From a virus (Duplodnaviria > Heunggongvirae > Uroviricota > Caudoviricetes), in IMG/VR virus record IMGVR_UViG_3300029543_000174, positions 1 through 50,820 of that record: 50,820 nt of DNA. One strand, given 5' to 3'. The translations under genes and the position numbers were made by a program. This document shows, piece by piece, positions 5,449-38,501 of this stretch (position 1 is its first letter; each line of letters begins with the position of its first letter). Under the pieces are notes generated by a model. It made no database searches. It worked only from the letters and a program-made list of their open reading frames with translations, and was not told where the DNA came from.

Positions 5449-5457
5449 TTATCATAA

Positions 5458-5492
5458 ATAAAAGGTCACTTTTCAGTGGCCTTTTATTTTTT
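5458..5492 (+). terminator. intrinsic terminator
   Basis: AAAAGGTCACT-TTTC-AGTGGCCTTTT followed by a T run. Confidence 0.75.
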
Positions 5493-5517
5493 TACCATTG
5501 TCAAGTAAAAAGTTAGC

Positions 5518-5553
5518 TGAAAAAATTTTTTTTGCGCGATATATATAGTGAGG
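5518..5553 (+). promoter_or_regulatory. class-2 promoter-like motif T(A/G)AA-N14-GCGATA (copy 1 of 5)
   Basis: TGAA 5518-5521 and GCGATA 5536-5541; the motif recurs at 14505, 22420, 32232 and 38428 ahead of genes or operons. Confidence 0.55.
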
Positions 5554-5580
5554 ATACCAAAGAAAGGAGAAACGATAGTT

Positions 5581-6006
5581 ATGTATAAAGTGAAAAAGAC
5601 CTCAAATGAGCCTCAATTCTATGCTAAATATCTATTTCAAATATTAATAGCACTTGGCTGTTTCTTTATATTAGCTGTTAAACCTATTGATAAAATAAGT
5701 CTTTTGGGCTTTTTTGTAGTTTTAATAGATTTAATATTTTTAATTGTAAGTTTCGTTAGCAGTATTAACGAAATTTATAATTTGTCAGCTACAGATGGAA
5801 GATTGTTATTTGAATTTGGTGACAGAACAGAAGCTTATACTGATATGGAAGTTCTAAAAAACAATGAAAACAAAATCGTTGTAAAAGCTTCTGATTGTAA
5901 TAACACAAAAGTCAAAATGACAATAAAATTTAACGATTATAATGAAAAAAATGAATTTTTGAATTCTTATTGTAAAGATCAAGATTTTTGTGGGAAAGGA
6001 GAGTGA
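5581..6006 (+). CDS. hypothetical membrane protein
   Basis: two hydrophobic helices; ATG 5581 behind GAAAGGAG. Confidence 0.7.
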   Translation: MYKVKKTSNEPQFYAKYLFQILIALGCFFILAVKPIDKISLLGFFVVLIDLIFLIVSFVSSINEIYNLSATDGRLLFEFGDRTEAYTDMEVLKNNENKIVVKASDCNNTKVKMTIKFNDYNEKNEFLNSYCKDQDFCGKGE

Positions 6007-6011
6007 ATTCT

Positions 6012-6500
6012 TTGCCAAACAAAAAAATTGATAAAAATGAAATAAGAATCCTTCGGGCTATGGGTTATGAGTATAGTGAAATCGGAGAAAAAATGAATTG
6101 TTCACGGCAGTATGCGTATATGGTCTGTACACAGGAAGATTATATATCTGCTAACTTATTATGTAAAATCAATAATTTGATTTTAAAAGGATATTCCATT
6201 GAGGATATAAGAGATAATCTTAATCTTGGTGATTGCGAAATTTTCAGAAGAAAAATGCTGTATAAAAAAGTCAAATATCCTGTTTTGAGAAATTATGTCA
6301 TTGTTAATTACGGTACATATAAAAATTTCTGTGACAAAATCGGCTATACGACAATTAATTTCTGTGCAATTATTAACGGCTCCGGCAGGGTGAAAAAACC
6401 AAGCAAATACCTTATTTCACTTATAAAAAGAGAAACAGGAATTGATGAAAAAATATTTTTAAGAGAATCAACAAATGATTTTAAAAAGGATGTGATTTAA
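6012..6500 (+). CDS. HTH DNA-binding protein (sigma-70 region 4-like HTH plus a possible XRE-like HTH)
   Basis: LRAMGYEYSEIGEKMNCSRQY; TYKNFCDKIGYTTINFCAIING; TTG start behind GAAAGGAG. Confidence 0.65.
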   Translation: MPNKKIDKNEIRILRAMGYEYSEIGEKMNCSRQYAYMVCTQEDYISANLLCKINNLILKGYSIEDIRDNLNLGDCEIFRRKMLYKKVKYPVLRNYVIVNYGTYKNFCDKIGYTTINFCAIINGSGRVKKPSKYLISLIKRETGIDEKIFLRESTNDFKKDVI

Positions 6501-6533
6501 ACGATTACGGTAACTAACAATTTAACAAACAAA

Positions 6534-7451
6534 ATGCTTGATAGTTATTTTAACTATTTAGAAAAAAATCGTTTGATTGAACCTGATATTGCCATTCATT
6601 GTGATACAAGAGAAAAAGCAGAATATTTGATTGCAATGTATGCTGCATCCGGCAAAGCTTGGAGTTCAACCTCACCACTTATTACTAATGAAAACGAATA
6701 TGTAACTCGTTGGGGGAAGGACAAAGAAGCAACATGTTATAGAGTTAATGAAAGCGATTATAAATACCTTTTTAAGAGTATAGCAAATGTATACGAAAAA
6801 AAAGGAGTTATTGTTATTGAATTTCAAGATTTATTCCCATTTATATCATTAACTGAACAACCTATTGTTGAAGATGAATCAAACAAAAAGAAAAACAAAT
6901 CAAAATTATTTGGTAAAAAGAAAACTTCAAATACAGAAGAAACCAATGATAATCAGCCAGTAAAAAATGATGAAGATCTAAATGTACAAAATCACAGTTT
7001 GCCTAATGAATCAATTATTACTGACGATAAAACCAATTTTGATGAAAGTCAAGAAAATAATAATGCTTTGATAACTGATGAAAAGAATATTGACATCAAT
7101 AAAACGGTTATTATGCCGGAAAGTAATAAAGCAGATACAAAAACATTTATTGATGATTCTCCAAAACAAAAAAATAAAGATGAGCCTAAACAGAATATTG
7201 ACGTACAGCCAGTAAAAGAGGACAAATTTTCAATTTCCGAAAACAAAGGCTCTATTGTAAAAGATAAATTTGATTCAGTTAATTTACCAATTATGAAGAA
7301 TTTTAAAATAAACGATGATATGTATCGGCTTAATAATTCTTTAATATGCGAAAAATGCTACGGAGCATATTGGTATCCTATACTTAATATCGAAAAATAT
7401 ATATCAATTCTTAATCATATGAAGAACGGTGATGTGAAATATGTTGAGTAA
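6534..7451 (+). CDS. hypothetical protein with a low-complexity central region (may start at ATT 6504)
   Basis: long ORF in an operon; the N-terminal AIHCDTREKAEYL...GKAWSS resembles phage hypothetical proteins. Confidence 0.65.
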   Translation: MLDSYFNYLEKNRLIEPDIAIHCDTREKAEYLIAMYAASGKAWSSTSPLITNENEYVTRWGKDKEATCYRVNESDYKYLFKSIANVYEKKGVIVIEFQDLFPFISLTEQPIVEDESNKKKNKSKLFGKKKTSNTEETNDNQPVKNDEDLNVQNHSLPNESIITDDKTNFDESQENNNALITDEKNIDINKTVIMPESNKADTKTFIDDSPKQKNKDEPKQNIDVQPVKEDKFSISENKGSIVKDKFDSVNLPIMKNFKINDDMYRLNNSLICEKCYGAYWYPILNIEKYISILNHMKNGDVKYVE

Positions 7452-8601
7452 ATTACAAAAAACAATCTTATTTATAACTGCAGTTTCAATTTTTATTGCT
7501 TCAACTGTTTTGACAGCCTATGCAGGTACACCACAAGTAGAAGATAATATTTATGTAGCTGTAGGATATTCTAAAACAATCCCTTGTTCTCTTGATAATT
7601 GTCAAGGCAAAAGGAAAAATTGGAGTGCCGCAAGCAAATACTTTACTATTTCTTCAACCGGTACGCTTAAAGGTATATCACGAGGAAATGGTACGGCTAC
7701 TATTTCTACTGAATCGGGTGAATCGAAAACATGTAATGTTTATGTGACACCTGCTGCTAATCTTTCCTCTAAAATCGGTAAGGTTAAATTAATACGTGGC
7801 AAATCAAAAAAAATCAATGTCACAATAAGCCCTCAAAATGCTTGTTCTGACCTTATTTGGAATTCATCAAACAGCAACATTGCTACTGTTGAAAACGGTC
7901 TTATAACCGCTACCGGCTTAGGAAAATGTGATATTTATTGTAAGACAAATGACGGTGGCTCCGGTTATTTGAGTATCTCGGTTACAGTAAGTAATCCTTC
8001 TACGACAAGTCCTACCGTCAGTAAAAAAATACAAACCACAAAAAAACATAAGGTTACTACAACTAAAAAGAGAGTGACTCATAATAATACTGTTCATTCT
8101 CGTGATGATGCTACTAAATTGACTACAGTTGCTACAACAAAAAAATCAACAACACATCAAAATATTAGCACCAAAAAAAATACAACAAATAATTCAACAA
8201 ATAATATAACAAATAATTCAACAAATGAATCAACTACTTTAGAAACTACTACTGAGAATGTGACTGTTGAAGATGATATTTATTATACCGGAAGCAATGA
8301 AATGCAAGATTATGACTTAAAAGGTATTAGTAAAAAAAAATCACCTATCAAAATAGAATGGAACAAAATTAAAGGGGCAACAGGATATCAATTGTTTTGT
8401 TCTTTCGATATGAAAAATTTTGCATTGATATATGATGGTACAAATAATTTTTATGAACAACACCACTTTCAAAATGGTAAAACATATTATTATTTTGTTA
8501 GAAGTTATAAAGTTGAGAATGGTATAAAAATCACTGATTATAATTCAGATGTACTTGTTCAAAAAAGTGTCGGTAAAGGCATTTTGTCAAAAATAATTTA
8601 G
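7441..8601 (+). CDS. secreted Ig-like (Big_2) / Thr-rich / FN3-like protein
   Basis: signal peptide ending AYA; WNSSNSNIATVENGLITA; C-terminal IEWNKIKGATGYQL...YYYFVRSY. Confidence 0.8.
   Translation: MLSKLQKTILFITAVSIFIASTVLTAYAGTPQVEDNIYVAVGYSKTIPCSLDNCQGKRKNWSAASKYFTISSTGTLKGISRGNGTATISTESGESKTCNVYVTPAANLSSKIGKVKLIRGKSKKINVTISPQNACSDLIWNSSNSNIATVENGLITATGLGKCDIYCKTNDGGSGYLSISVTVSNPSTTSPTVSKKIQTTKKHKVTTTKKRVTHNNTVHSRDDATKLTTVATTKKSTTHQNISTKKNTTNNSTNNITNNSTNESTTLETTTENVTVEDDIYYTGSNEMQDYDLKGISKKKSPIKIEWNKIKGATGYQLFCSFDMKNFALIYDGTNNFYEQHHFQNGKTYYYFVRSYKVENGIKITDYNSDVLVQKSVGKGILSKII
8182..8232 (+). repeat. 12-bp in-frame tandem repeat encoding TNNS/TNNI/TNES
   Basis: four ACAAATAATTCA-like units. 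Confidence 0.7.
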
Positions 8602-8617
8602 AAAGGATAATTTAATA

Positions 8618-8866
8618 ATGATTAAAGGTTATGATTTTGGTAAATACGAAAGCAGAATAGCTATTCTTATTGAAGCTTGTAACACAGTTGATATTGAAAA
8701 AATACATAATGAATATGTGTATCTTAAAGACGTTTCAATGAAAGATAAGGATGAAGTCTTTGCTATTGATTATTTAGAACAAGAAGTAAAAATGCTTTAT
8801 TTCAGAGCTATTGACTTGTTTTCATATGAAATTGCTAAAAAGGAAGGAGGAAAATCCAATGGATAA
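8618..8866 (+). CDS. hypothetical protein
   Basis: SD GAAAGGA; tight operon packing. Confidence 0.65.
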   Translation: MIKGYDFGKYESRIAILIEACNTVDIEKIHNEYVYLKDVSMKDKDEVFAIDYLEQEVKMLYFRAIDLFSYEIAKKEGGKSNG

Positions 8867-9161
8867 TTTGGAAAACAACAAACGACTTAATATTACGATG
8901 AATTTCTCGTTAGAACCAAATGAACATCAAATCAAATTGTCTTCAAAAACTGATTTCTTTCATGATGAATTAACAGAATCAGAAGCAAAATTGCTTTTTG
9001 CAAATGTAGTTAAGCTGTTCATTGATACTGTTAAATCCGACAGAATTAAACTTGAATATGTTGATGAAGACCTTGATGAGAAAAATATTTGCAATGAATT
9101 GTTTGAATCTGCAGAGGTTATTTTAAATGAATACTATACAGAGAAAATAGAGGAGGACTAA
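8859..9161 (+). CDS. hypothetical acidic protein
   Basis: ATG 8859 behind AAGGAGG. Confidence 0.65.
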   Translation: MDNLENNKRLNITMNFSLEPNEHQIKLSSKTDFFHDELTESEAKLLFANVVKLFIDTVKSDRIKLEYVDEDLDEKNICNELFESAEVILNEYYTEKIEED

Positions 9162-9163
9162 TT

Positions 9164-9598
9164 ATGGCAAAATCTTATCAACAGAAAGCATTGAACGGCT
9201 TTTTGTATAAAAGTACATATCCGCAAGGGCACGAATTAAAATTAAAAACAAAGGCTGGTAAAATCAGCCTTTGGGGATATAAACCTGAAGAATACAGAGC
9301 ATTAAAGGCAGCAGGTAATAAAAATATGAAGGTAATCGGTTTTACAAATCTTTTACCTGACAAACCGGTTATTGCAAAAGATAAATTTCTTGTTGAAATT
9401 GAAGGACAAGCTTGTGCTTTTGCAATAACACCTACTCCAAAAAAAGAAGTTTATTTATATTTATCTGTTGGTAAAAACCGTTACGTAGGTCTTGAAGATG
9501 CTTCTCTTAAAGATATGGTTAAAACATATAAGAATGCTAAAAAGTCTGAACGTAAAGAAAAAAAGAAAAGGAAGGCAAAAAAGAATGCAAAAAAGTAA
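9164..9598 (+). CDS. hypothetical basic protein
   Basis: SD GAGGAGG; Lys-rich C-terminus. Confidence 0.7.
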   Translation: MAKSYQQKALNGFLYKSTYPQGHELKLKTKAGKISLWGYKPEEYRALKAAGNKNMKVIGFTNLLPDKPVIAKDKFLVEIEGQACAFAITPTPKKEVYLYLSVGKNRYVGLEDASLKDMVKTYKNAKKSERKEKKKRKAKKNAKK

Positions 9599-11084
9599 AA
9601 AAATTGTTTCAATATTTCTTTTGATTACAACCGTTATTTTTTGTTTCTCAGGCTGTTCATATATTGATCAAATGAAACAGAAAAATGTTAAATATTCGAT
9701 TTCATCTGCCGGTTATTTATACATAGATAACGGCGGAACTGTAATTCCGCAAGAGGAATTTAAAGATAACACCGACATTAGAGTAGCTTATATTCCTGAT
9801 TCTGTTACTACGATTGAAAAAGGAGCATTTGAAGGTTGTAAAAATTTAACCACAGTTACAATGTCAAATAATATTACAGAAATACCTAAAAATTGTTTTA
9901 AAGATTGTAAAGCACTTAACAAAATGGAATTATTTAGTTCTGTTAAAAAAATTGGTGAAAGTGCCTTTGAAGGTTGTACCACACTTAATATGGTTACAGG
10001 TACAACGGAAGTTAAAGAACTTGGTGAAAATGCATTTAAAGATTGTACAACACTTACTAAGTTTGATATGCCGCAATTCGTAGGAATTATTCCTGAATAT
10101 TGCTTTAGTGGCTGTGCTGCTCTTACTTCAATTACTATACCAGATGCAACTGTTCAAATTGACGGATATGCTTTTTCCGGTTGTACAGGTTTAAAATCAA
10201 TCAAAGGTATGAAAAATGTTGCTAATCTTGGTAACGGTATATTTTATAATTGCAATAATGCAACCGAAATTCAGTTACCTTTAAAAACAACTGAATTAAG
10301 TGAAAGCTGTTTTTCTGACTGCAAAGCTTTAACTACAATTACAATACCTAATAATATTACTAAAATTGGTGTAAGCTCTTTTGCAGGTTGTGAAAATCTC
10401 AAAGAAGTGAAAAATTCAAAAAATATTACTTCAATAGGCGATAGTGCATTTGCAAGGTGTTTTGCTCTTGAAAAATTTGACTTTTCCGATAATTTTGTCG
10501 AATTCGGTATGATGTCATTTTCAAGCTGTTATTCACTAAAAAAATTAAATATTCCTATCGGAATCAGCATTATTCCAAGTTCTTGCTTTTCCGGATGTGT
10601 TTCTTTGACATCTTTGGATATTCCAAGCACGATTCAGATCATTGATAAAGCAGCTTTTAAAAGTTGCAAAAATCTTCAAAATCTTACTTTGCACAGTGGT
10701 GCTTTGATCACTATTGATAAAGGAGCATTCGCAAATTGCAAATCATTGACTAATGTTGTTGTTCCTCATTCGGTAAATGTATTAGGGGAAGGTGTATTTA
10801 AGGAATGTAGTTCATTACAAGGCGTTATGTTAAATGCCAACTTGACTTCTATACCTAATGAAACATTCTACAGTTGCACGTCTTTGACTACTGTAAATAT
10901 TCCTAAAAATGTAAAATCAATTGGTACAAGAGCATTTTATAATTGCCCTTCATTGAATAAATTATCTTTCCCAAATGGTCTTGAAACTATCGGTTCTTGT
11001 GCTTTTGAAGATAGTCCTGTTTCAAAAGCTTCTTTACCAAGCTCAGTTATCAGTATTGCTGATGATGCTTTCGGAACTGACTAA
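9585..11084 (+). CDS. BspA-type leucine-rich repeat (LRR_5) surface lipoprotein
   Basis: lipobox-like FSGC; many IPxxVTxIxxxAFxGCxxL repeats. Confidence 0.93.
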   Translation: MQKSKKIVSIFLLITTVIFCFSGCSYIDQMKQKNVKYSISSAGYLYIDNGGTVIPQEEFKDNTDIRVAYIPDSVTTIEKGAFEGCKNLTTVTMSNNITEIPKNCFKDCKALNKMELFSSVKKIGESAFEGCTTLNMVTGTTEVKELGENAFKDCTTLTKFDMPQFVGIIPEYCFSGCAALTSITIPDATVQIDGYAFSGCTGLKSIKGMKNVANLGNGIFYNCNNATEIQLPLKTTELSESCFSDCKALTTITIPNNITKIGVSSFAGCENLKEVKNSKNITSIGDSAFARCFALEKFDFSDNFVEFGMMSFSSCYSLKKLNIPIGISIIPSSCFSGCVSLTSLDIPSTIQIIDKAAFKSCKNLQNLTLHSGALITIDKGAFANCKSLTNVVVPHSVNVLGEGVFKECSSLQGVMLNANLTSIPNETFYSCTSLTTVNIPKNVKSIGTRAFYNCPSLNKLSFPNGLETIGSCAFEDSPVSKASLPSSVISIADDAFGTD

Positions 11085-11097
11085 AATATAACAAAAC

Positions 11098-11122
11098 AGT
11101 CGGGCAGCAGGTCTGCCCGACT
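11098..11122 (+). terminator. GC-rich hairpin carrying GCAGCAGG
   Basis: AGTCGGGCAG-CAGGT-CTGCCCGACT with only a weak U-tract. Confidence 0.5.
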
Positions 11123-11148
11123 TCTAAAAATATTAAGAGGTGATATAT

Positions 11149-11649
11149 GTGAAAAAGAAAATAACTAAAGGATTGTTAATCCAAAACTCAGATTCAATTA
11201 AATACATTTGTCTTTCATCAATACTTCTTTTGGTATTTATAACTTCATTTTTTGTTTTTGTAAATTCAATGCAAAGTATTAAGGATTTAAGTCAACCGAT
11301 ATCTTTAAAGAGTATAATTACAATTGCTCTTTGTGTTACTTCTGTAGTTTTATTACCTCTTACTGATACAATAAAAGCTATAAAAATCCAACATTTTATC
11401 TGTTCGGGCAAATATACCTATGAATATTGCAAAATAGAACATTTTGATATTGACAAAGAAACTCAAAAATATGCTCTTGTTTTAAACAATGGTCGTTCGG
11501 TTGATATTACTGAAAATGAATTCAAATATTACAAAGATAATGAAAATGAATCAGAATTTATTGGATTTAGTATTTTAAACAGATACTTAATATTTGATTG
11601 TAAAGATTATTGCATTGAGAAAGGGGAGAATACAACAATTGAACATTAA
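11149..11649 (+). CDS. hypothetical membrane protein
   Basis: two TM segments; GTG start behind AGAGGTG. Confidence 0.65.
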   Translation: MKKKITKGLLIQNSDSIKYICLSSILLLVFITSFFVFVNSMQSIKDLSQPISLKSIITIALCVTSVVLLPLTDTIKAIKIQHFICSGKYTYEYCKIEHFDIDKETQKYALVLNNGRSVDITENEFKYYKDNENESEFIGFSILNRYLIFDCKDYCIEKGENTTIEH

Positions 11650-12289
11650 CGATACTTTGACTTTATATGATCTTTTTAATTATATGTCTTTAGCTAATAC
11701 TGAAATTAACAAATTAATAAAATCAAGAAAACTTTTCCGAGACAGAGAAAAGATAATTCCTTATTCGTTTAGTGTATCTAAATTGCAAAAATTATTTATT
11801 ATTGCAATGCTGAAATACTTTAACAAATTTTCTAATGATAATCCTGTAGTTGATTTTATTAATGTGAATGTTGTTAATTACGGCTTTTCGGTTGATTGCC
11901 ATAGTACGTGGATGCTACATTTAGACAAATATTACGATAATACAAAACATAAGGACCAAAATAAAAGTTTATATGCTTACCTTAACGATAACTACACAAA
12001 AGCAGATGCTATCAATATGATAGTTGACTCAGAAATGCTCAACACAATGCTCTCTAAGAGCTTTTGCATTCCACGTGAACTTCGATATACCATTATTGAT
12101 ACAATGCTTGAATTTGGGCTGTACAAGCCTAAAACATTGGGAATATTACTAAATGTTTTGAAAAATTCTTCGCACATACCACCTGTTGCACAGACTGTTT
12201 CTATTCAAGATTTATATTTGGCTACAAAATCTATACCTTCTGATGAAAATGTATTGATGGAGTTTATAACAAAAAGAAAAGTAATATGA
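11639..12289 (+). CDS. hypothetical protein
   Basis: TTG start behind AAGGGGAG. Confidence 0.65.
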   Translation: MNINDTLTLYDLFNYMSLANTEINKLIKSRKLFRDREKIIPYSFSVSKLQKLFIIAMLKYFNKFSNDNPVVDFINVNVVNYGFSVDCHSTWMLHLDKYYDNTKHKDQNKSLYAYLNDNYTKADAINMIVDSEMLNTMLSKSFCIPRELRYTIIDTMLEFGLYKPKTLGILLNVLKNSSHIPPVAQTVSIQDLYLATKSIPSDENVLMEFITKRKVI

Positions 12290-12412
12290 AAATATATAAA
12301 ACTTATACTGCTAAAAAGATAATCTTAATATTAATGTAATAATATAGCATAACTGTAAAAATACAAATAAATCATATCAGATTATATAGGAAAGTGAGGT
12401 TAAAAAACAATT

Positions 12413-12595
12413 ATGAAAACCTTTTACAAGAAAGCTTTGAAAAATCGTTATGCTGTTACTTGCCCTTATTGTTGTTCGGCATATATTTCCGAATTAAGTC
12501 ATCCGATTAGCAGTATCAAAAATAATATTACTGTTTACTGTTATCTTTGCCATGATTGTGGTGAAAAATGGTTGGATAAAGAGTTTAAGTTATAA
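12413..12595 (+). CDS. small zinc-ribbon protein
   Basis: CPYC...CHDCGEKW; SD GAGGT. Confidence 0.6.
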   Translation: MKTFYKKALKNRYAVTCPYCCSAYISELSHPISSIKNNITVYCYLCHDCGEKWLDKEFKL

Positions 12596-12609
12596 GAGAT
12601 TTGCAGTAA

Positions 12610-12639
12610 AAAAGAGCCTTGTTAAATCAAGGCTCTTTT
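12610..12639. terminator. bidirectional terminator
   Basis: AAAAGAGCCTTG / CAAGGCTCTTTT between convergent units. Confidence 0.75.
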
Positions 12640-12667
12640 CTATATTTCCCAACTAATATTTCCTTTA

Positions 12668-12817
12668 TCATTTTTTTAGTCTTTCTTCCAAAAGCTTTCT
12701 TCCTTTACCTTTGTTCTTTTCAGACTCTTTAAGAAATTAATCATATCTTTCAGGTGCTACAATAAAACTATGGTTATTTGATATTGCAAAACAAGCTTCA
12801 ATATTTTCTTTTGACAT
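12668..12817 (-). pseudogene. small ORF with an internal stop (MSKENIEACFAISNNHSFIVAPERYD*FLKESEKNKGKGRKLLEERLKK)
   Basis: translated by hand; TAA at 12737-12739 interrupts an otherwise continuous 49-codon frame directly downstream of the pseudoknot array. Confidence 0.4.
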
Positions 12818-12835
12818 ATAACCACACTTTCTTTT

Positions 12836-12957
12836 TCAGTTCCTACTATATGGCAAGGATTTTCCACTTTTTTAAGTTCCTACTATCCGGCAAGGACTTT
12901 CCGCTTTTTTCGGTCCTAATTTTTCGGCTTAAGCTTTCCGCTTTTGTAGCACCTATG
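12836..12957 (-). ncRNA. ToxI-like (type III TA antitoxin) array of three 36-37 nt pseudoknot repeats plus a partial 5' unit, with no toxN
   Basis: units AAAAGCGGAAAGCUUAAGCCGAAAAAUUAGGAC, AAAAAAGCGGAAAGUCCUUGCCGGAUAGUAGGAAC, AAAAAAGUGGAAAAUCCUUGCCAUAUAGUAGGAAC; compensatory changes in both stems; own promoter. Confidence 0.75.
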
Positions 12958-12962
12958 TACTT

Positions 12963-12991
12963 ATTGTATCGCATAATTATTGATTTGTAAA
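12963..12991 (-). promoter_or_regulatory. sigma-A promoter for the pseudoknot array
   Basis: TTTACA-17 bp-TACAAT on the minus strand. Confidence 0.7.
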
Positions 12992-13083
12992 TAGAAAAAA
13001 ACTAATAAATTAGGCGTTGACAAATACAATATTTGCACTTTAAAAATCAAAAAGCCTTTAAACTATTTTTCATGATACATGAG

Positions 13084-13110
13084 AAAAGCAGGTCAAAAGA
13101 CCTGCTTTTC
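13084..13110. terminator. terminator after the DUF3800 gene
   Basis: AAAAGCAGGTC-AAAA-GACCTGCTTTT. Confidence 0.75.
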
Positions 13111-13112
13111 TT

Positions 13113-13805
13113 TTACGGTAAATACGTAATTGTTAAATGTTCATCTTCATTAATTTCTTTATTATTATTAATTTGATAATAAAGTTTATTTGAAATTATA
13201 TCGGCAGCCCTTATTAATGGTAAATATTTTGAATCACAATATTTTAATGTTAAAATGTTACAATTTTTAAATATTGGTTCATAGTAATGTTGATAATTAA
13301 AATTAAAAGTTCCTTTTACAAGTTCTTGATATAAGCCCTCTCTCAATTCGTATTTGCCGCTTGTGGCAACTGCATGTTCATCAACAAAGAAATGTAATTC
13401 TATTTCATCATTTGGTTCAATTAATCCTTTGTCAATTAGATTCATTAAAGCTTTTTTTACGCCGATTTTATATGCATAATCTAAATATCTTTGTTTATTT
13501 AATTTGTAGTCGTAAATATTATTATTAATTCTATTTTGATTGATAATTATTCCAAATTTATAATAATTATTTAAAGACCTATAAATACTATTTTTATGTT
13601 TTTTAGACAAGTGATATGCTTTTAATTCCAATGAATATGAAGATTTAGTTGCTTGTCTTAAATCCTTTTCAATGTGTTTATAATTTCTTATTGCATTATC
13701 TTTGTCTTCTTTGCTCAAAAATATTAAACCGCCAAACACAAAGTTACTATAATGAATATGATCAAAAACCCCTGATTCGTCAGAATATATGTATATTGTT
13801 GTCAT
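13113..13805 (-). CDS. DUF3800 family protein (RNase H-like fold)
   Basis: IYIYSDESG N-terminus and DSK..PLIRAADIISN C-terminus; true start ATG 13805 behind GAGGAG. Confidence 0.85.
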   Translation of the reverse strand: MTTIYIYSDESGVFDHIHYSNFVFGGLIFLSKEDKDNAIRNYKHIEKDLRQATKSSYSLELKAYHLSKKHKNSIYRSLNNYYKFGIIINQNRINNNIYDYKLNKQRYLDYAYKIGVKKALMNLIDKGLIEPNDEIELHFFVDEHAVATSGKYELREGLYQELVKGTFNFNYQHYYEPIFKNCNILTLKYCDSKYLPLIRAADIISNKLYYQINNNKEINEDEHLTITYLP

Positions 13806-13821
13806 AATATTAAATCTCCTC

Positions 13822-13930
13822 AAAAAAAAACCACCTACTAAAAAGTAGGTGGCCCTTGTGACTAACGTACTTACTATACGCCTGAACGGTTGTTTAGCTA
13901 CCACAAGTATGCAGTGTATCTGTACCTGCA
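13822..13930 (-). ncRNA. structured ncRNA/leader upstream of DUF3800, ending in an intrinsic terminator
   Basis: promoter TTGACA(13964-13959)-17-TACAAT(13941-13936); stems UGCAG/CUGCA, CUUGUG/CACAAG, CGUAU/GUACG; terminator CCACCUAC/GUAGGUGG plus U9. Confidence 0.75.
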
Positions 13931-14000
13931 ATATTATTGTACGCAAAATATGTGCTGATGTCAAGATTTAATTTTATTTTTTTTATAAAATATCTTTCGC

Positions 14001-14034
14001 AAAACCACATTCATTTTGGCACGTGGTAGTTCAC
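14001..14034 (+). mobile_element. IS200/IS605-type right-end remnant
   Basis: hairpin ACCAC...GTGGT followed by AGTTCAC, the same terminus as 38219-38225; it supplies the stop codon of the MNT gene. Confidence 0.5.
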
Positions 14035-14321
14035 GATATTTTAACGCCCTCCCTCATAACATTTTCATAAAAAGGAGTTGATTTATCAACCTCACAAATT
14101 TCAAAAGCGTCAACACTTTTACCTGTTATTTGCCTAAGTTCTTCTGCAAACGCAAATATATTTGACTTTTTAAAATTTTCTCCGCCAAAAACGAGCACAT
14201 CAATATCGGAATTTTCTGTCTGTTCTCCTCTTGCATACGAACCGAAAAAAAACGCATATTCTGCATTGTATCGAACAAGAAGTTCTTTTATTGTTTTTTC
14301 AATTTCATCTTTAGTAAGCAT
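14031..14321 (-). CDS. minimal nucleotidyltransferase (MNT) domain protein with no HEPN partner
   Basis: FFGSYARGEQTENSDIDVLV motif; upstream promoter TTGCAT-17-TATAAT. Confidence 0.9.
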   Translation of the reverse strand: MLTKDEIEKTIKELLVRYNAEYAFFFGSYARGEQTENSDIDVLVFGGENFKKSNIFAFAEELRQITGKSVDAFEICEVDKSTPFYENVMREGVKIS

Positions 14322-14660
14322 AATATCGCTCCCTTTCCCTTATATTTTCTATATGTATTATATATTTATCGTTTCTGAAATGCAACGCACAATGCAATAA
14401 TCTTAGTTAAAGTCCTGAAAATGTCTCTTGTTCAGGCAAAAAACAATTATTTAATATCAAAAAAATAAAACTATCAAATACTTTTCTAAAAAAAAATTTT
14501 TTGCGCGATAAAGTATATGAAAGGGTTAAAAACACTCTTTTATGTACCTTGAAAAGTTAATATGATAGTTCTTTATTTCGATATTTATTTGTAAAAAAAG
14601 GTCGCATTTTCTATATATGGTATAGTTAAAATAAAATATACAATATATTGAAAAATGGCG

Positions 14661-14689
14661 TTGACACTCCTATATATCTGCGTTATAAT
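14661..14689 (+). promoter_or_regulatory. sigma-A promoter
   Basis: perfect TTGACA-17-TATAAT. Confidence 0.8.
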
Positions 14690-14716
14690 TAAGATGAACA
14701 AGGGAGGAAGTCAACT

Positions 14717-15985
14717 ATGACTGACAATAGATTTAAGAAAGTAATATCAACCATTATGGCTGTTACAATAGCTTTTACCGGCTTGACTTTGGGTGCTCCA
14801 AGTTATGCAGCAAATAGGAAGCCAAGCTCAACAAGCGTTACGAGTATAAAGGCAATAAATAACGGCTTTACAGTTAAATGGAAAAAGAAGTCTTGCACAG
14901 GCTATCAAATCCAGTATTCGACAAGCAAAAAGTTTGCTAAAAAAGGTACTAAGGTTTTGAAAGTAAACAAGGCTAAAACAACTTCTAAGACTGTAAAGAA
15001 GCTCAAAGCTAAGAAAAAGTATTATGTAAGAGTAAGAGCATATAAGACTGTTAAGAAAAAGAAGTATTACTCAAAGTGGACCAAGACTTATAAAGTAACT
15101 ACAAAAAAGGCTAAGAGTTCATCAAGCAGTAGTTCTTCAACTACTCCTACTATTAAATCTATTTCTTATCTTGATAAGGGATATGGCTTTAAACTTACTT
15201 GGAACAAAGTTTCTAAAGCTTATGGTTATGAGGTTCAATATAGTACAAATAAAAAATTCTCTGATGTTTATGATGATGAGGGTTATGTATTTGACAATAT
15301 GCATAAGGACGTAAGTAAGAACAGTACCTCTGTAAATTTCAAAGTCAGTGATAAAGATCCTGCTGCTGATAACATTTGGTATGTAAGAATCAGAACAGAA
15401 AAGTCCGGTGGAAAGTATTCCGGCTGGTCTAAGACCGTTTCAATCCTTACTCCTGAAAGAAAAGATTATCTCAGACTTATGGATAAGGCTTATGGTGAAA
15501 TGGGTATTGTAGCAACCGATAGTGAATTTGACAAACTTGTTAAAATTCAACGTTGGATTGATTATAATTGGTATTATGACAGAGATACTGTTCATAATGA
15601 TGCAATTAGTGTTTACCAATTAGCAAAATATCATCATGATGGTTGTAATTCTTTTGCCGCTGGTTTTAATTACTTTGCTAATAAAGCTGGTATTCAAAGT
15701 TGCACAATCGGTGGAAGTTCAACTAAGCCATACAGAGAAGGACATTATTGGAATTGGATTAATATTGAAGGATATTGGTATTCTTACGACTGTGAGGTCT
15801 ATAATCCCAATAATTTATTTGATGCTAATCATAAGCCTATGAGATTTTTAAGATATGATTTTATTGGTGACTCTTATGTACTTGATAAAGTATATACTAA
15901 TATTTATACAAATTCAAATCCAAAAGCTGACAAGACAATGATCAACAATATGATCAATCGTATTAATTCAAAACTTTACACTTAA
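14717..15985 (+). CDS. secreted FN3-repeat protein with a C-terminal transglutaminase-like domain
   Basis: signal peptide; two FN3 repeats (FTVKWKK..GYQIQYST, YVRVR); GCNSFA...HYWN...YD triad. Confidence 0.85.
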   Translation: MTDNRFKKVISTIMAVTIAFTGLTLGAPSYAANRKPSSTSVTSIKAINNGFTVKWKKKSCTGYQIQYSTSKKFAKKGTKVLKVNKAKTTSKTVKKLKAKKKYYVRVRAYKTVKKKKYYSKWTKTYKVTTKKAKSSSSSSSSTTPTIKSISYLDKGYGFKLTWNKVSKAYGYEVQYSTNKKFSDVYDDEGYVFDNMHKDVSKNSTSVNFKVSDKDPAADNIWYVRIRTEKSGGKYSGWSKTVSILTPERKDYLRLMDKAYGEMGIVATDSEFDKLVKIQRWIDYNWYYDRDTVHNDAISVYQLAKYHHDGCNSFAAGFNYFANKAGIQSCTIGGSSTKPYREGHYWNWINIEGYWYSYDCEVYNPNNLFDANHKPMRFLRYDFIGDSYVLDKVYTNIYTNSNPKADKTMINNMINRINSKLYT

Positions 15986-16004
15986 TACTATATACAAATA
16001 AGTT

Positions 16005-16043
16005 TAAGAACTATCAATGTAAAAGTTGATAGTTCTTTTTTTA
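16005..16043 (+). terminator. intrinsic terminator
   Basis: AAGAACTATCAA / TTGATAGTTCTT plus a T run. Confidence 0.8.
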
Positions 16044-16445
16044 TACTTTTTTAACAAAAAAAGATGCCGTTCTATTTCTTTTCACTTGGAGAATAGATGA
16101 AAGCCTATGCTCACATTCAAAATATGGAAGTGACTATATTTTGAGTGCCAAAGAAACTGTGTGAGGAGTCGAGGTCAGTGACACTTTGGCAATATTTTTT
16201 CGATATTACAATAAATTTATAGTTTTATTAAAATTTTAAAGGTGGTGAATTGTAATGACTAATAAAAATTACAAAGCATTAAATTGGTCAGGATTTATGT
16301 AGCTAACCTTTTGTGGGTTGGCTGAATATAAATAATGATTAAATGAAATAATTAAAATTCTCATTGTGATTTTAATTATCTGTTTTGAACAATGGTTTTA
16401 ATAATATTATTAAAATACTCTTAAGAAAGGAGAAAAATCAAATAT

Positions 16446-19400
16446 ATGAAAAGATTTAATTCATATAAAGTTAAAGGTCTTGGTAAACGTGTACTTTCTG
16501 TTTTACTTGCCATTTTAATGGTGTTTAGTTGTTTTGCAACAAGTCTTACTGCTCTTGCTGATTCATCAATCAAAGATGTATGGACTTCATCTGACGGACA
16601 TTCACATCACAGATTAAAGGTCAACGGTAAAGATGCCTTTTGTATTAACTACGGTCAAGAATCAACCGGTAAGTTTAAGACTGATTCTGCTGCACTTAAA
16701 TATTGGAACAGTCTTGGCACCACAAAAAAGAATAAAATTCAAAATATTCTTTCTTGTGCAGAAGCTAAAGGCTATATAAACGGTTCTGATAAAGAATATT
16801 TTGGTATTCAGAGAGCAATTTGGAATGTTGTTACTACTAAATCAGAAAAAGAACTGTCGGATTATTTCAAATCACAGACAAATTCTGTATATAAATCGCT
16901 TAATTCAAATTATTCTGATTACGCAAAGAAAGCTCCTAAGTTTGGTACAATCAAACTGGAACCTCAGTATAACAGTAGTGGTAATGTTACTTCATATAAA
17001 GGCTCAGCGACAGACAGTAACAAAGTTTTGAGTAAATTTAAGTTTACTGATAAAGCAGGGCTTAAAACTTCTGTTTCGGGCAATAAACTTACAGTAACAT
17101 CAACTACAAGATTTGATGGCTTAAAAAAGCTTAAAATGACATCTAATAATAAGCATTATACTATTAAGGATAGTCAGGTTGGCCATTTTGGTAATCAGCA
17201 GGTTATTGCTATTGGTAGCCCAAATGTACTTAACGCAAATGTTAGTGTAAGAACGAGTGAAATTAACTTAGGAGATATTACAATTAATAAAATTGCTGAA
17301 ACCGGTGAACCTATGAGTGGTATCCGATTTGATTTGTATAATTCAAATGGCACATACATTAGTTCAGATTGGACTGATGCAAACGGAATAGCAACTTTTG
17401 AAGGTCTTAACGTTGGAACGTACACCGTAACAGAAGTCACTCCTGCCGGTTATGTGCCGTATGGAAACACAAACAGTGTTCAAGTAACAGTAAGAGCCGG
17501 AGATGTAGTCAATGCATCAAACCATTCAAGCGGTAAATGGGTCAACACTTTGCAACGTGGTGATATTTATATCCATAAGACAATTGAGGATACAAGTACA
17601 CCGTATCAGGCAGAATTTACTCTTTACGATTTGGACGGCAATTATGTAATCTCAGGAACAACAAACACTGCCGGCGACCTTTACTTCTGTAATATCCCAA
17701 CAGGATATTATCAAATTAAAGAAACCAATACATATAACAGTAATGTTATAGATTGGCAAGCAACATATACAACATATGATTCGGGTACAGGTCAAACAAC
17801 AACTCATAAAGGTGCACAGATTTATGTATCTTGGGATGGTCAAACGACTTATCCATATACAAACAATGTAAACCATAATGGTTGGCTTAATGACCTTGTA
17901 GGTGGTACAAACCTTTGTGATTGGGTTAATGAGATTAATTTCTCAGGTAACAATACAATCGTAAATAAGTATATGCGTGGCGATTTGAGACTCTATAAAG
18001 TCTCTGAGAAGCCTGATACAACGAGTTCAAACGGATATACATACAAGTATGTTCCTAACGATAATACAGGCTCATATCCAGCCACAAAAGGTGCTAAGTT
18101 CACAATTACAAGTGAGGCAAGCCAAAATGCATTGGGTAAAGATTTAACATTTACTACAACTACGGATGAACAGGGATATGCATACTTCTGTGATGTTCCT
18201 ATCGGCTATTATACAGTAAAAGAAGTTGAGGTTGATAATAAGTATGTTCAGCCTGACAATCAAATCTTTTACGTAGCGTGGGATGGTAATACAAACTATG
18301 ATGTAACAGGTACGAACTGTAGAAACAGTGTTGATTACTATGCAGACTATAATTCAAATACATTAACCTTTATTAACTATTTAAAGTATTTCAGATTTGA
18401 ATTTTCAAAGCTTGATAATGATACAAATAGTTCAAAGGCTCAGGGTGATGCTTCGCTTGCAGGAGCAACATATGAACTTTATAAAGGCAATGAACTTGTA
18501 GGAACTTATGTAACCGATGCAAGCGGTAAGTTTACAACAAACTATCATATTTGTGGTAATGACTATTACCTTAAAGAAGTAGGCTCATCTAACGGTTATT
18601 ACATTAATAAGGAAAACTTAAAGGTATCCGAAGATCCGTCAAAGTACACAGTAAGGCTTAATGATACTTCAAAAACCAACACAGAAACGGTTAAAAAGGG
18701 TAGAATTGAGATTATGAAATTTACCGATGACGGTTCTGATAAATATGTTACACCAGAGCCTAATGCAGAATTTCAAATCTATCTCAAATCGGCAGGCTCA
18801 TACGAGAATGCTAAAAACAACGAGAGAGATTTAATTGTTACCGGTAAAGATGGCTATGCTGAAAGTAAGGCATTGCCTTATGGTGAATATGTAATTCATC
18901 AGACTAAATGTGGTCTTGAAGGTACTCTTTTAGCAGATGACCAAATTTGTAAAATTCAAACAGATTCAAGTGCATACCCTGATAACGGTGATTCAAATGT
19001 TGTAGCAGTTTACAGATATGCAATTAAAAATCTTTTAGATAGTGCATACTTAAAGCTTGTAAAAGTTGATGCCGATACAGGCAAAGCTATTCCGTACAAT
19101 GAACTCCAAGGTGCTAAATTCCAGATTCTTGATAAGGATTTGAATGTAGTCAAAATGACTTATACATATCCTAAGAAAATGGTAATTGATACATTTACTT
19201 TAAATGATGAAGGATATCTTATTACTCCTGAAAAGCTTCCATACGGTAAGTATTATATTGTAGAAGTAGAAGCACCATACGGCTATTTCAATCCAAATGC
19301 TGATAAAATCGTATCAAGGATTGACAGTAACGGTAATACGGTTTACGAGTATGATAAGAAATCTGTTGAAAAAACAGCGTTCAAAATTGATACAGTAAAT

Positions 19401-22310
19401 AACGAAAACAAAGTTGATAAAACAGATGCTCAACGTGCTACAATTGAAGTAAGCATTAAGAATAATGTTCAAACAGCAAATCTCCAAGTTGAAAAACGAG
19501 GAGAAGTTTTCAAAACTGTAACAAAGAATGGTGAATTCTATTCAGCAGTTTATGAAGAACAAGGTCTTGCAGGTGCTGTATATACTGTTTATGCATCAGA
19601 GGATATTGTTACTCCTGACGGTACTGTAAGGTACAAGAAAGGTGATGCAGTATGTACTCTTACAACAGGTGCAACTGGTATTGCAGACTCTAAATTAAGT
19701 ACAACACAATGGTTTGGTAAGTGGCATAAGCTTTATCTTGGCAAGTATGAAATCAAGGAAATTACTGCTCCGAATGGCTTTGCACTTAACGCCGATTCAA
19801 AGAAAATTGAACTTGCATATCAAGGTCAAAATGTTAAAGTTTATGATGTAAATGATACTTTTGTAAATGAAAGACAAAAGGTTGAAGTCAAAGGAACTAA
19901 GGAACTTGAAGTCAATGATATCTACGGTATCGGGAATAATAATGAGGTTGAATCAGTAGTATTTGGCCTCTATGCAAATGAAAATATTATTGCGGCTGAC
20001 GGTACTAAAATTCCTAAAGACGGCTTGATTCAAAAGGTAAATGTATCTGCAAACGGTACGTTTGAATTTGATGCCGACCTTCCATTAAACTTTGATTATT
20101 ATGTAAAAGAAATTGCAACAGATAATCATTACAAGCTTAATGATAAGAAATTTACGTTCAGCTTTGACTATAAAGGTCAAGATATTGCAAAACAAACAAT
20201 TACCCTTAATGGCAATAAGCCTATTTCAAATGAACTTAAATACGGTAAGATTTCCGGTCTTAAAGTAGACGATTTAGGTAATAAACTTGCTAATGTAACA
20301 TTTGGTTTATTCTCAAAAGATGAAACTAAATTTACAAAAGAAAATGCAATCGTAACAGTAACTACCGATAAAAACGGTGTATTTGAAATTGACAATATTC
20401 CGGTTGGTAATTATCAACTTGTAGAGCTTTCTGCTCCAGACGGTTATGCCTTTTCAAAAGAACCAATCGGCATTTCGGTTACTGAGGACAAACAAGTTAT
20501 CAAAAAGCAAGTTGAAAACAAGGTTGTACGTGGTCAAATTGTTATCACAAAACAAGGTGAATTCTTCTATTCTACATCAGAAAATGAAGACGGTACAACA
20601 ACTCCTGTTTATAAGAATTGTAATCTTCCGGGTGCTACATTTGATGTAATCGCTGCTGAAGATATTACTACTCCTGATGGTGTAGTAAGAGCACATAAGG
20701 GTGATGTAGTTGATACAATCACTACTGATGAAAACGGTGTAGCAAAGAGTAAGGAACTCTTCCTTGGTAAGTATGAGGTAAAAGAAACCAAAGCACCAAA
20801 GGGATATTTCCTTGATAAAAACAACTATACTGATGATAATAGCTTTAAGGTTGAACTTACATTTGAGAACAGTGATAAGGAACTTGTTGTAACAAATCTT
20901 GATGCATATAACAAAAGACAAACAGTAAAAGTAAATCTTATTAAATCAATGGAAAAAGATAATATCTTTAAAATTGACGATGTAAATGCACTTAAAAACG
21001 TTGTCTTTGGTTTATTGGCAAGAGAAGATATGACAGCAGTTGACGGTTCTGAAATTAAGGCAAACACACTTATTGAAAGAGCAAAACCTGATGAAAACGG
21101 TCTTGTATCGTTCAATGCTGACCTTCCTTACGGCTACAAATATTATGTAAAAGAAATCTCTACGGATTCTCTTTATACATTAGATGAGACAGAGTATGAA
21201 TTTGCATTTGATACCGAGGAAAACGATGCAGAAGTAACTACAATCTCCATTAATAATGGTACTGTCATTGTAAATACTATTGCAAGAGGTAAGGTAACAG
21301 GTGTTAAAAAGGATACTGACGGTGCACTTGTAAAAGGTGCTTTGTATGGTTTATTCAGCTCTGATGCAACTGAATTCACAAAAGAAACTGCTCTTATGAC
21401 AGCAGAAACAGATGAAAACGGTGTATTCACATTTGACTTAATTCCAAAGGGTAGTTACATTATCGTTGAATTATATGTACCTGTACCATATAAAGTAAGT
21501 AATGAAAAGATTGCATTTACTATCAGTGATGAAGCAAATCAAGTAGCATTTGATGTTACTGATGAATTTATCACAGGTGCTATTTCGGTATATAAATTTG
21601 ATGCAGATTATCCTGAAAATTCATTATCAGGTGCAACATTTACAGTATATAATGACGTTGACGGTAACGGTATTTATGATGAAAATATTGATACTGTTTA
21701 TAATACTTTGAACGAAGTTCAGACAGGATTTTATTTCCTCGACGGCATCAGATACGGTCATTATCTTGTAAAAGAAACTGCTTCTCCTAACGGATTTGCA
21801 ATTGATGAAAATTATTATCCGGTATTCATTGAAGAAGATGGCAAAACATATAATGTTACTAATTCCGGTGAAAGCTTTGTTGATACAGCTCTTAAAGGTA
21901 CTTTAAAAGTAGTTAAATCTTCGTCTAACGGCGTTGTAGAAGGCTTTACTTTCAATATCAAAGGTACAAGTACAACTGGTGAAAAAATTGATATCACAGA
22001 GGTTACAAACAGTAAAGGCGAAATCAATATTTCTGACCTTAGAGTAGGTACTTATACAATTACTGAGGTTGAAAATGATGCTACCGATAACTATAAAATT
22101 GAAGAACCAAAGACTGTTACAATTAAAGCAAACGAAACAGCAACAGTTCATTTCTATAATGAATATAATGCACCGAGTGCACCAAAAGCAGGTCTTGATA
22201 ATAACTTCTTCGGTCTTGCTTGTGCAGGTGTAGGAACTTCAATTATGGGTTCAATTTCTATGTTAGGATACATTGTTTCAAAGAAGAAAAAGAATGATAT
22301 TGACGATTAA
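16446..22310 (+). CDS. large cell-wall-anchored adhesin with SpaA/CnaB-type isopeptide (pilin-like) repeats
   Basis: signal peptide; repeated GATF/Y..KE..AP.GY motifs; C-terminal APKAG, hydrophobic helix and KKKK tail. Confidence 0.92.
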   Translation: MKRFNSYKVKGLGKRVLSVLLAILMVFSCFATSLTALADSSIKDVWTSSDGHSHHRLKVNGKDAFCINYGQESTGKFKTDSAALKYWNSLGTTKKNKIQNILSCAEAKGYINGSDKEYFGIQRAIWNVVTTKSEKELSDYFKSQTNSVYKSLNSNYSDYAKKAPKFGTIKLEPQYNSSGNVTSYKGSATDSNKVLSKFKFTDKAGLKTSVSGNKLTVTSTTRFDGLKKLKMTSNNKHYTIKDSQVGHFGNQQVIAIGSPNVLNANVSVRTSEINLGDITINKIAETGEPMSGIRFDLYNSNGTYISSDWTDANGIATFEGLNVGTYTVTEVTPAGYVPYGNTNSVQVTVRAGDVVNASNHSSGKWVNTLQRGDIYIHKTIEDTSTPYQAEFTLYDLDGNYVISGTTNTAGDLYFCNIPTGYYQIKETNTYNSNVIDWQATYTTYDSGTGQTTTHKGAQIYVSWDGQTTYPYTNNVNHNGWLNDLVGGTNLCDWVNEINFSGNNTIVNKYMRGDLRLYKVSEKPDTTSSNGYTYKYVPNDNTGSYPATKGAKFTITSEASQNALGKDLTFTTTTDEQGYAYFCDVPIGYYTVKEVEVDNKYVQPDNQIFYVAWDGNTNYDVTGTNCRNSVDYYADYNSNTLTFINYLKYFRFEFSKLDNDTNSSKAQGDASLAGATYELYKGNELVGTYVTDASGKFTTNYHICGNDYYLKEVGSSNGYYINKENLKVSEDPSKYTVRLNDTSKTNTETVKKGRIEIMKFTDDGSDKYVTPEPNAEFQIYLKSAGSYENAKNNERDLIVTGKDGYAESKALPYGEYVIHQTKCGLEGTLLADDQICKIQTDSSAYPDNGDSNVVAVYRYAIKNLLDSAYLKLVKVDADTGKAIPYNELQGAKFQILDKDLNVVKMTYTYPKKMVIDTFTLNDEGYLITPEKLPYGKYYIVEVEAPYGYFNPNADKIVSRIDSNGNTVYEYDKKSVEKTAFKIDTVNNENKVDKTDAQRATIEVSIKNNVQTANLQVEKRGEVFKTVTKNGEFYSAVYEEQGLAGAVYTVYASEDIVTPDGTVRYKKGDAVCTLTTGATGIADSKLSTTQWFGKWHKLYLGKYEIKEITAPNGFALNADSKKIELAYQGQNVKVYDVNDTFVNERQKVEVKGTKELEVNDIYGIGNNNEVESVVFGLYANENIIAADGTKIPKDGLIQKVNVSANGTFEFDADLPLNFDYYVKEIATDNHYKLNDKKFTFSFDYKGQDIAKQTITLNGNKPISNELKYGKISGLKVDDLGNKLANVTFGLFSKDETKFTKENAIVTVTTDKNGVFEIDNIPVGNYQLVELSAPDGYAFSKEPIGISVTEDKQVIKKQVENKVVRGQIVITKQGEFFYSTSENEDGTTTPVYKNCNLPGATFDVIAAEDITTPDGVVRAHKGDVVDTITTDENGVAKSKELFLGKYEVKETKAPKGYFLDKNNYTDDNSFKVELTFENSDKELVVTNLDAYNKRQTVKVNLIKSMEKDNIFKIDDVNALKNVVFGLLAREDMTAVDGSEIKANTLIERAKPDENGLVSFNADLPYGYKYYVKEISTDSLYTLDETEYEFAFDTEENDAEVTTISINNGTVIVNTIARGKVTGVKKDTDGALVKGALYGLFSSDATEFTKETALMTAETDENGVFTFDLIPKGSYIIVELYVPVPYKVSNEKIAFTISDEANQVAFDVTDEFITGAISVYKFDADYPENSLSGATFTVYNDVDGNGIYDENIDTVYNTLNEVQTGFYFLDGIRYGHYLVKETASPNGFAIDENYYPVFIEEDGKTYNVTNSGESFVDTALKGTLKVVKSSSNGVVEGFTFNIKGTSTTGEKIDITEVTNSKGEINISDLRVGTYTITEVENDATDNYKIEEPKTVTIKANETATVHFYNEYNAPSAPKAGLDNNFFGLACAGVGTSIMGSISMLGYIVSKKKKNDIDD

Positions 22311-22331
22311 TCAGTAAAGTTCATGTTTTCG

Positions 22332-22360
22332 GAGAGTCGCTTCTGCGGCTCTCTTTTTTT
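22332..22360 (+). terminator. intrinsic terminator
   Basis: GAGAGTCGC-TTCT-GCGGCTCTC plus a T run. Confidence 0.8.
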
Positions 22361-22641
22361 ATGCTTTTTTAAAAAAAATTATTTTTTTATGCATATTCGC
22401 AAAAATAAAAATTTCTTGCGCGATAAATATAATGAAAGGTATTTTATGAGTCAATATCTTTCAATAAGTTTTATTTTGTGTTTAATTTTTTTCTTCTTTA
22501 ATTTGTTATTTTTTTGTTAATTTTTATTGCTTTTTTCTATTCGTTTAACAAGAATTTTATTATCCAAGGAACTATTGAACACATCAATAGTTCTTATTTT
22601 TTTTTTTTTTTGACTCAAATAATTGAAAGGAGAAAGAAACT

Positions 22642-33037: not shown

Positions 33038-33058
33038 TGAATTTGAAAGGATGATAAT

Positions 33059-38225: not shown

Positions 38226-38501
38226 TTTGTTTTTGGTGTTTGTCATTTTTTATTTTCAATGATCTACATCAACTCCTTTTTAATCACTTATTGCCAAATA
38301 AGTGATGATGTCTTTTTTCAAAAAAACCTTTTGATTTTTAAATCGGAAGGTTTTTTTATTTTTTTTGCATTTTTTTAGTAAAAAATTAATTTTTTTTTGC
38401 AAATTTTTATGAAAAAATGAAATATTTGCGATATATATATTGGAAGCATTTCCAAATATATACAAAATGCCAATTGAATGGCAAAAAGAAAGGAACATTT
38501 T

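Follow-up and report, generated by a model that had tools for sequence, protein, structure and literature searches.

A toxin-less ToxI-type pseudoknot array on a probable conjugative element, a candidate inhibitor of ToxN in trans

We analyzed a 50,820-nt stretch of DNA (the window), which forms the first 50,820 nt of the 114,820-nt record G000, and found that its minus strand carries a real ToxI-type array which is neither part of a toxIN operon nor located on a phage. By sequence comparison, the three units of the array are homologues of real ToxI repeats. On balance, we lean toward the reading that this toxin-less array was orphaned from a toxIN operon and has been kept as an inhibitor of ToxN in trans; its transcription, processing, binding to ToxN and benefit are what ToxIN biology, by analogy, would lead one to expect. 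The parts of the locus are as follows.

12963..12991, minus strand: putative sigma-A promoter TTTACA-17-TACAAT, 10/12 consensus match (-35 TTTACA at 12991-12986, -10 TACAAT at 12968-12963)
12942..12956, minus strand: 5' leader of 15 nt, probable 3' half repeat, in the 37-nt register
12905..12941, minus strand: ToxI-type unit 1, of the divergent type, with A-U where the stems join
12868..12904, minus strand: ToxI-type unit 2, of the canonical type, with U.U, after G, where the stems join
12832..12867, minus strand: ToxI-type unit 3, UGG/CCA stem 1
12668..12817, minus strand: broken small ORF of 49 codons, stop at 12739-12737 (TAA, codon 27), not ToxN
12610..12639: terminator-like hairpin, probably bidirectional, predicted to end the transcript

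An earlier note on this DNA had described a minus-strand promoter followed by three units of 36-37 nt separated by A-runs, each able to form an H-type pseudoknot, and all of these features were present as described. The units start at 12941, 12904 and 12867 with a spacing of 37 nt, and when the leader, which resembles the 3' half of a unit, is counted in, the array amounts to about 3.4 repeats. An enumerator of H-type pseudoknots (MFE folding does not model pseudoknots) returned exactly the stems that had been listed: CGG/CCG, CGG/CCG and UGG/CCA for stem 1 of units 1, 2 and 3, and CUUAA/UUAGG, UCCU/AGGA and UCCU/AGGA for stem 2. The three units are 50-63% alike to one another over the 30 columns compared. 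A pairing descriptor, which was designed on the window's own three units, picked out a single three-unit chain from the 114,820 nt of the record, and 60 dinucleotide shuffles contained none. Promoter-type sites with a 10/12 match are common in the window (20 vs 13.6 in shuffles), and the array promoter alone is not above this background; it is kept across the six related loci with single changes.

The identity of the units was established by their toxN-linked relatives. A search with a two-unit pattern recovered 59 loci on viral contigs. A terminator and toxN follow the array in 46 of them and toxN is deleted or truncated in 5; the rest comprise one unrelated orphan (L005), two relatives of the window and 5 chance matches. 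All four of the downstream proteins tested matched PF13958 (E~1e-44), and one also matched PADLOC AbiQ. A protein-first search yielded 80 toxN loci, and the toxN-linked clade includes, for example, the ToxN of L043, L052 and L337. From 23 representative loci, 64 distinct toxN-linked units were picked without a pairing filter and aligned with the window's three. In these 67 units the seven core pairs are intact in 468/469 cells. Double-sided changes occupy 88 cells, vs 23.7 in shuffles, and are seen in 6/8 pairs. The covariation score was 0.465, compared with 0.142 in shuffled and at most 0.106 in slid alignments, and it was attained by 0/500 shuffles, a test that is inflated by the relatedness of the units. 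The ToxI pseudoknot thus gains strong support from natural covariation in the 64 toxN-linked units.

When a profile was built from the 64 linked units only, the window's units were the top three matches in 114.8 kb (unit 2, 1e-6; unit 1, 6e-4; unit 3, 3e-3), and the next match had an E-value of 0.81. This profile is the independent test; the RNA model R1 includes the window units, and its matches in G000 are circular. The tails ACCG, ACUU and ACUG with their A-run occur in linked arrays too. With this homology to toxN-linked repeats and with covariation in both stems, the ToxI identity first proposed from the letters alone was supported. The comparison with the Rfam ToxI model, which the earlier note had suggested, showed that RF02519 matched unit 3 weakly (16.8 bits vs a gathering threshold of 50) and no other unit, so that the array is not a member of the Rfam ToxI family as curated. 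The Rfam gathering scan of the window returned DUF3800-I alone, elsewhere than the array.

The array is not followed by a terminator with toxN but by the broken ORF alone, as had been noticed, and no hairpin lies between the array and that ORF. The small ORF is a pseudogene of a family of 53-87 aa with an intact 63-aa relative, P0002; its stop is found in 6/6 related loci, and its start is lost in X12. The family had no match in Pfam, NCBIfam or PADLOC and was found only in unnamed Atlas clusters, from which no context was recovered; proteins of this type may precede GNAT toxins. Searches with PF13958 and with our own alignment found no ToxN in G000 (115 kb) or in two relatives, G001 (192 kb) and G002 (58 kb), and the control, G003, was positive. 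CptN was likewise absent from the three sequences, with a positive control, and a TenpN search gave no match anywhere, its positive control included. The 37-nt units are linked to PF13958/AbiQ proteins and do not have the lengths of CptI (40-48 nt) or TenpI (39-57 nt). Six related loci (L001, L002, L184, L187, L192 and L194) share the array-ORF junction and the stop and are all toxin-less; the earlier note would have seen a simple recent deletion had close relatives carried toxN directly downstream, and 6/6 do not. G000 is a fragment whose proteins are found on contigs of up to 817 kb, and toxN may therefore lie outside G000.

Toxin-less cassettes were also found elsewhere. The complete 3.8-kb plasmid pRGI00505 carries one and has no toxN; in this plasmid and in contig L208 the cassette directly follows the mob genes, and the two Mob proteins are 46% identical. 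Other toxin-less loci are L005, L182, L203, L204, L206, L210 and L364. The 10 GTDB matches comprised 3 linked arrays, 6 toxin-less arrays and 1 at a contig edge, and the 20 metagenome matches comprised 4 relatives of the window, 3 arrays of another orphan lineage, 4 linked arrays, 2 cut at contig ends and 7 chance matches. Three samples of 150 genomes searched with the RNA model contained 2 linked arrays, one of them with a frameshifted toxN (G095), 1 two-unit orphan (L364) and 1 degenerate single unit (L369). ToxN matches were found in 0/6 orphan-bearing MAGs, which are incomplete genomes and include that of L364, a negative result that weighs against an in-trans role. A pattern of the 15-nt leader matched 119 loci, and the only array among them was L113, on the contig of L001. 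With blastn, phages gave no match and pRGI00505 was the sole convincing match in plasmids; the last viral scan gave no contig beyond those already found.

The settings of these loci differ. Toxin-less cassettes of promoter, units and hairpin lie on small plasmid or plasmid-like records at L181:776-930, L208:1-160 and L204:2450-2620 (with Mob_Pre/Rep_1, Mob_Pre and Rep3, respectively), and the first unit of L204 resembles a different pseudoknot type. At L210:1873-2580 a toxin-less ToxI array stands tail-to-tail with cptN on the opposite strand (NF047359, 120.6 bits). At L005:2380-2600 three near-identical toxin-less units lie 5' of a gene pair of an excisionase-like gene and an integrase gene, a setting that differs from those of the other orphans. 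In small gut prophages the toxIN operon itself is frequently found next to the lysis genes (L003, L009, L014, L043, L052 and relatives), and some prophage copies have lost toxN behind the terminator or have another sequence in its place (L016, L030, L040, L048 and L046).

We also analyzed the carrier of the array. The 129 sequences scanned include a VirD4-like coupling protein, a pilus ATPase, a sortase, ArdC, methylases and RtcB, and tRNAs are present too. No capsid, portal or tail Pfam family was found among the 129 sequences, and a terminase-ATPase match was sub-threshold (E=5e-4). The genes of the carrier are best explained by a conjugative element and not by a phage. The idea of a phage decoy in the manner of phage phiTE misfits, as conjugation genes are present on the carrier and convincing virion genes are not. 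A VirD4 search gave best matches of 37-40% identity, in 2/401 genomes. IMG/VR labels the element a provirus. A counter-defence-like gene repertoire lies at window positions 32309-34303 and 38478-39053 and at record positions 50396-53030 and 99644-100490, and comprises a LAGLIDADG gene adjoining RtcB, an HPF/S30AE-like gene, ArdC/MPTase-polyvalent and LPD11 genes and a six-tRNA cluster. Closer to the array, an Rfam DUF3800-I RNA (90 bits) precedes a DUF3800 gene at 13113-13964; relatives have different small ORFs there, together with a DUF3825 gene, so that the region upstream of the array is a swap site. An MntA-like nucleotidyltransferase is encoded at 14031-14321 (NF047752, 49.6 bits, below the cut-off of 60; PADLOC PDC-S09). 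No HepT/HEPN partner matched in G000, G001 or G002, the gene is frameshifted in L002, and it is possibly a second partnerless antitoxin.

It could be argued that the array is a relic which outlasted the loss of the terminator and toxN and has not yet eroded, in a variable accessory spot that also contains an ORF that is broken and an MntA-like gene that has no partner. Loss of the toxin is frequent in the clade and every stage was seen: a frameshift in G095, a lost start in L023, a truncation in L046, deletion of toxN in L016, L030, L040 and L048, and a single degenerate unit in L369. The neighbours are decaying as well, as the frameshift in the MntA-like gene illustrates. Furthermore, a core pair is broken in 5/30 distinct orphan units vs 1/64 linked units (p=0.012, for units that are not independent), and because orphan units break pairs more often, the relic explanation retains some weight. 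However, the alleles of the window lineage include no broken unit despite 6 substitutions in 110 nt. Between the window and L001, 6/110 array positions differ; the mostly coding backbone differs at 56/3762 (p=0.007) and the small ORF at 1/150 (p=0.044), and the four array changes that fall in stems all keep pairing. The X12 contig differs from the window array at two positions only, 12940 and 12925, which are paired and show an exact compensatory C-G/U-A swap in unit 1. The chance of two random sites being paired is about 0.004; the swap, counted as one event, could stem from recombination with a toxN-linked allele. A relic, which we consider rather unlikely, also fits poorly with the retention of the cassette in two records of plasmid type whose Mob proteins are 46% identical. 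Retention after toxin loss, as envisaged earlier, describes the likely origin of the array, but there are signs of continued selection. On the other hand, the same large element might carry a cognate toxN at another site, or the host chromosome might, and the array would then be an ordinary antitoxin that works in trans. What the record covers is a fragment of a larger whole, and the 624-kb contig behind L192 lies outside the ToxN search; against this stand three copies, of 115, 192 and 58 kb, in which no ToxN was found, the complete 3.8-kb plasmid without toxN and the six orphan-bearing MAGs without a ToxN match, which make such a split system improbable.

The earlier note had further taken the divergence of the units for an adaptation of an orphan array to several ToxN variants, each unit being tuned to a different one. 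In keeping with this, the window's units show 50-63% likeness over the 30 columns, unit 1 changes faster than its flanks, and in linked arrays the toxN-proximal unit is the most uniform (15/21 CCCUU) and the upstream units vary. However, 23 linked lineages had a median unit identity of 0.76 and 8 orphan lineages one of 0.81 (p=0.70), a count that left out L198, L207, L339, L206 and L364 and in which orphan discovery was biased to CCUU/AGG units; stem 1 was heterogeneous in 3/23 linked vs 3/8 orphan lineages (p=0.16). Divergence as an orphan-specific trait was rejected, since linked arrays are as heterogeneous. The layout of the window array, in which the first unit diverges and the later ones are canonical, matches that of linked arrays; the heterogeneity was therefore probably inherited from the parent ToxIN clade. 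The linked arrays L273-L352, upstream of toxN, contain units whose identity falls as low as 50% over 30 columns and whose stems are compensated, and most of the arrays also have a 5' hairpin leader. Unit variation falls mainly in the stems and the single-stranded tails match those of linked arrays, whereas ToxN recognizes the single-stranded overhangs at both the 5' and the 3' end, according to the available part of PMC8860590; non-identical tenpI repeats both neutralize the same toxin, as the excerpted text of PMC13682666 describes. Given equally diverse linked arrays, conserved overhangs and the tenpI precedent, we rate a decoy against several ToxN variants as very improbable, and avoidance of repeat collapse through recombination would explain the pattern more simply. 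Finally, the array could control the small ORF in cis, for example as a ToxN-cleavable sensor. The interval between array and ORF has no terminator, and leader positions 12944-12954 perfectly complement 12752-12762 in the small ORF over 11 bp, which 2/5000 shuffles reach; the allele changes at 12947 and 12755 give G.U pairs and are thus wobble-compatible. Yet all six loci keep the array but have a broken ORF, and other orphan cassettes lack such an ORF, which renders control in cis extremely improbable. The leader-ORF helix could protect the 5' end, or be due to chance.

For the in-trans inhibitor that we favor, the promoter would direct synthesis of an RNA of ~350 nt, and the ToxN of a co-resident prophage, plasmid or chromosome would cleave this RNA within the A-runs to give ~37-nt pseudoknots. 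The released pseudoknots would bind and block ToxN, which would protect the element against addiction or abortive growth arrest mediated by ToxN. With its own toxin absent, the element may gain immunity to the ToxN of prophages and plasmids, often of the same clade in this data set. The proposed cleavage and the occlusion of ToxN follow the ToxIN biology in the available portion of PMC5086642, which also presents antitoxins as highly toxin-specific, and this counts against the in-trans reading. For a conjugative element or a small plasmid, anti-addiction appears more plausible than escape from abortive infection, and the need for an anti-ToxN activity is less obvious in a conjugative element than in a lytic phage; PMC13617665, in the part available, mentions anti-addiction in general terms only. 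A weak hint of transcription comes from one RNA-library contig of one study, which spans 12620-12865 without a mismatch and shows neither strand nor ends. Among the matches listed for RNA run X11, there was no other long piece in 3000-22500 and none over units 1-2; this lack of cover proves nothing, and run X11 was found with the window stretch itself.

More tentatively, the solitary toxI cassettes that gut Firmicutes have on plasmids, conjugative elements and prophages may form a class of RNA anti-toxin genes that is maintained. Such genes would disarm the ToxN addiction or defence of competing elements, would correspond in nature to the phiTE pseudo-ToxI selected in the laboratory and would derive from a ToxIN clade with heavily non-identical repeats. 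If the cassettes are functional, mobile elements could cancel ToxN addiction or defence with an RNA gene of ~150 nt.

Compared with published ToxI, the window array has a similar organization. ToxI-type repeats are 31-62 nt long and occur in 1.9-5.6 copies (PMC3401426, Table 2, from the accessible part of the paper), and the window array, with a 37-nt period, three units of 36-37 nt plus a half unit (~3.4 copies in tandem) and an A-rich linker, lies within these ranges. The H-type pseudoknots have the dimensions of ToxI (stems of 3-4 bp, loop 1 of 3-4 nt, loop 2 of 1-2 nt), with 3- and 4-bp stems, a 4-nt loop 1 and a short loop 2 as in the published structures. The residues conserved in E. coli ToxI are two G-C pairs, the U.U and a G, as given in the available text of PMC8860590. 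The two stem-1 G-C pairs are invariant in all three window units, and units 2 and 3 have U-A-G-U with the U.U after G, one A being changed relative to A-A-G-U, as in the linked array L211; unit 1 has an A-U junction, a type present in 11/67 units. The likeness to Bacillus thuringiensis ToxI that the earlier note had pointed out was borne out by the consensus in the PMC3401426 supplement (Blower 2012), seen in part, which shares the core CCUURCC..AGUAGG with the window units and whose 3' tail matches 9 nt of the window leader.

Unlike a toxIN operon, the window array has no terminator and toxN downstream; unlike published ToxI, its units are strongly non-identical with compensated stems and score below the Rfam ToxI threshold. 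Reported toxI repeats are near-identical, 1-2 nt apart, in the excerpts available of PMC13682666 and PMC12283969. The present units indicate that toxI repeats need not be near-identical, and they offer a ready series for asking what sets ToxN specificity. The divergent tenpI repeats of the same two papers are similar in that the pseudoknot is kept by covarying stems, but they belong with a different toxin family, are longer and, in the text available, are always described with a toxin gene. Human-microbiome structured RNAs upstream of ToxN, Clostridiales included, have been described as HMP2_3156, HMP2_5421 and HMP2_14852 (PMC8040213, consulted in part). By description only, they may be the same RNA family as the window units, covering its linked form, but they are reported in cis to toxN. 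Type III surveys start from the toxin protein (PMC3401426 and PMC8860590, in the portions available), so that toxin-less antitoxin arrays would escape them; in the partial texts that our literature search reached, no natural toxin-less toxI cassettes on plasmids were reported, and the only toxin-less ToxI found was the phiTE pseudo-ToxI. The latter, from a Pectobacterium phage, resembles the window array in that a mobile element carries ToxI-like repeats but no toxN, and RNA mimicry was proposed for it (PMC3475682, available part). According to the same excerpt, wild-type phiTE has 1.5 repeats, encodes no full pseudoknot and expanded its repeats under laboratory selection (PMC3475682). In contrast, the window has three intact, naturally diverged units on a conjugative-type element, and similar cassettes are found on small plasmids.
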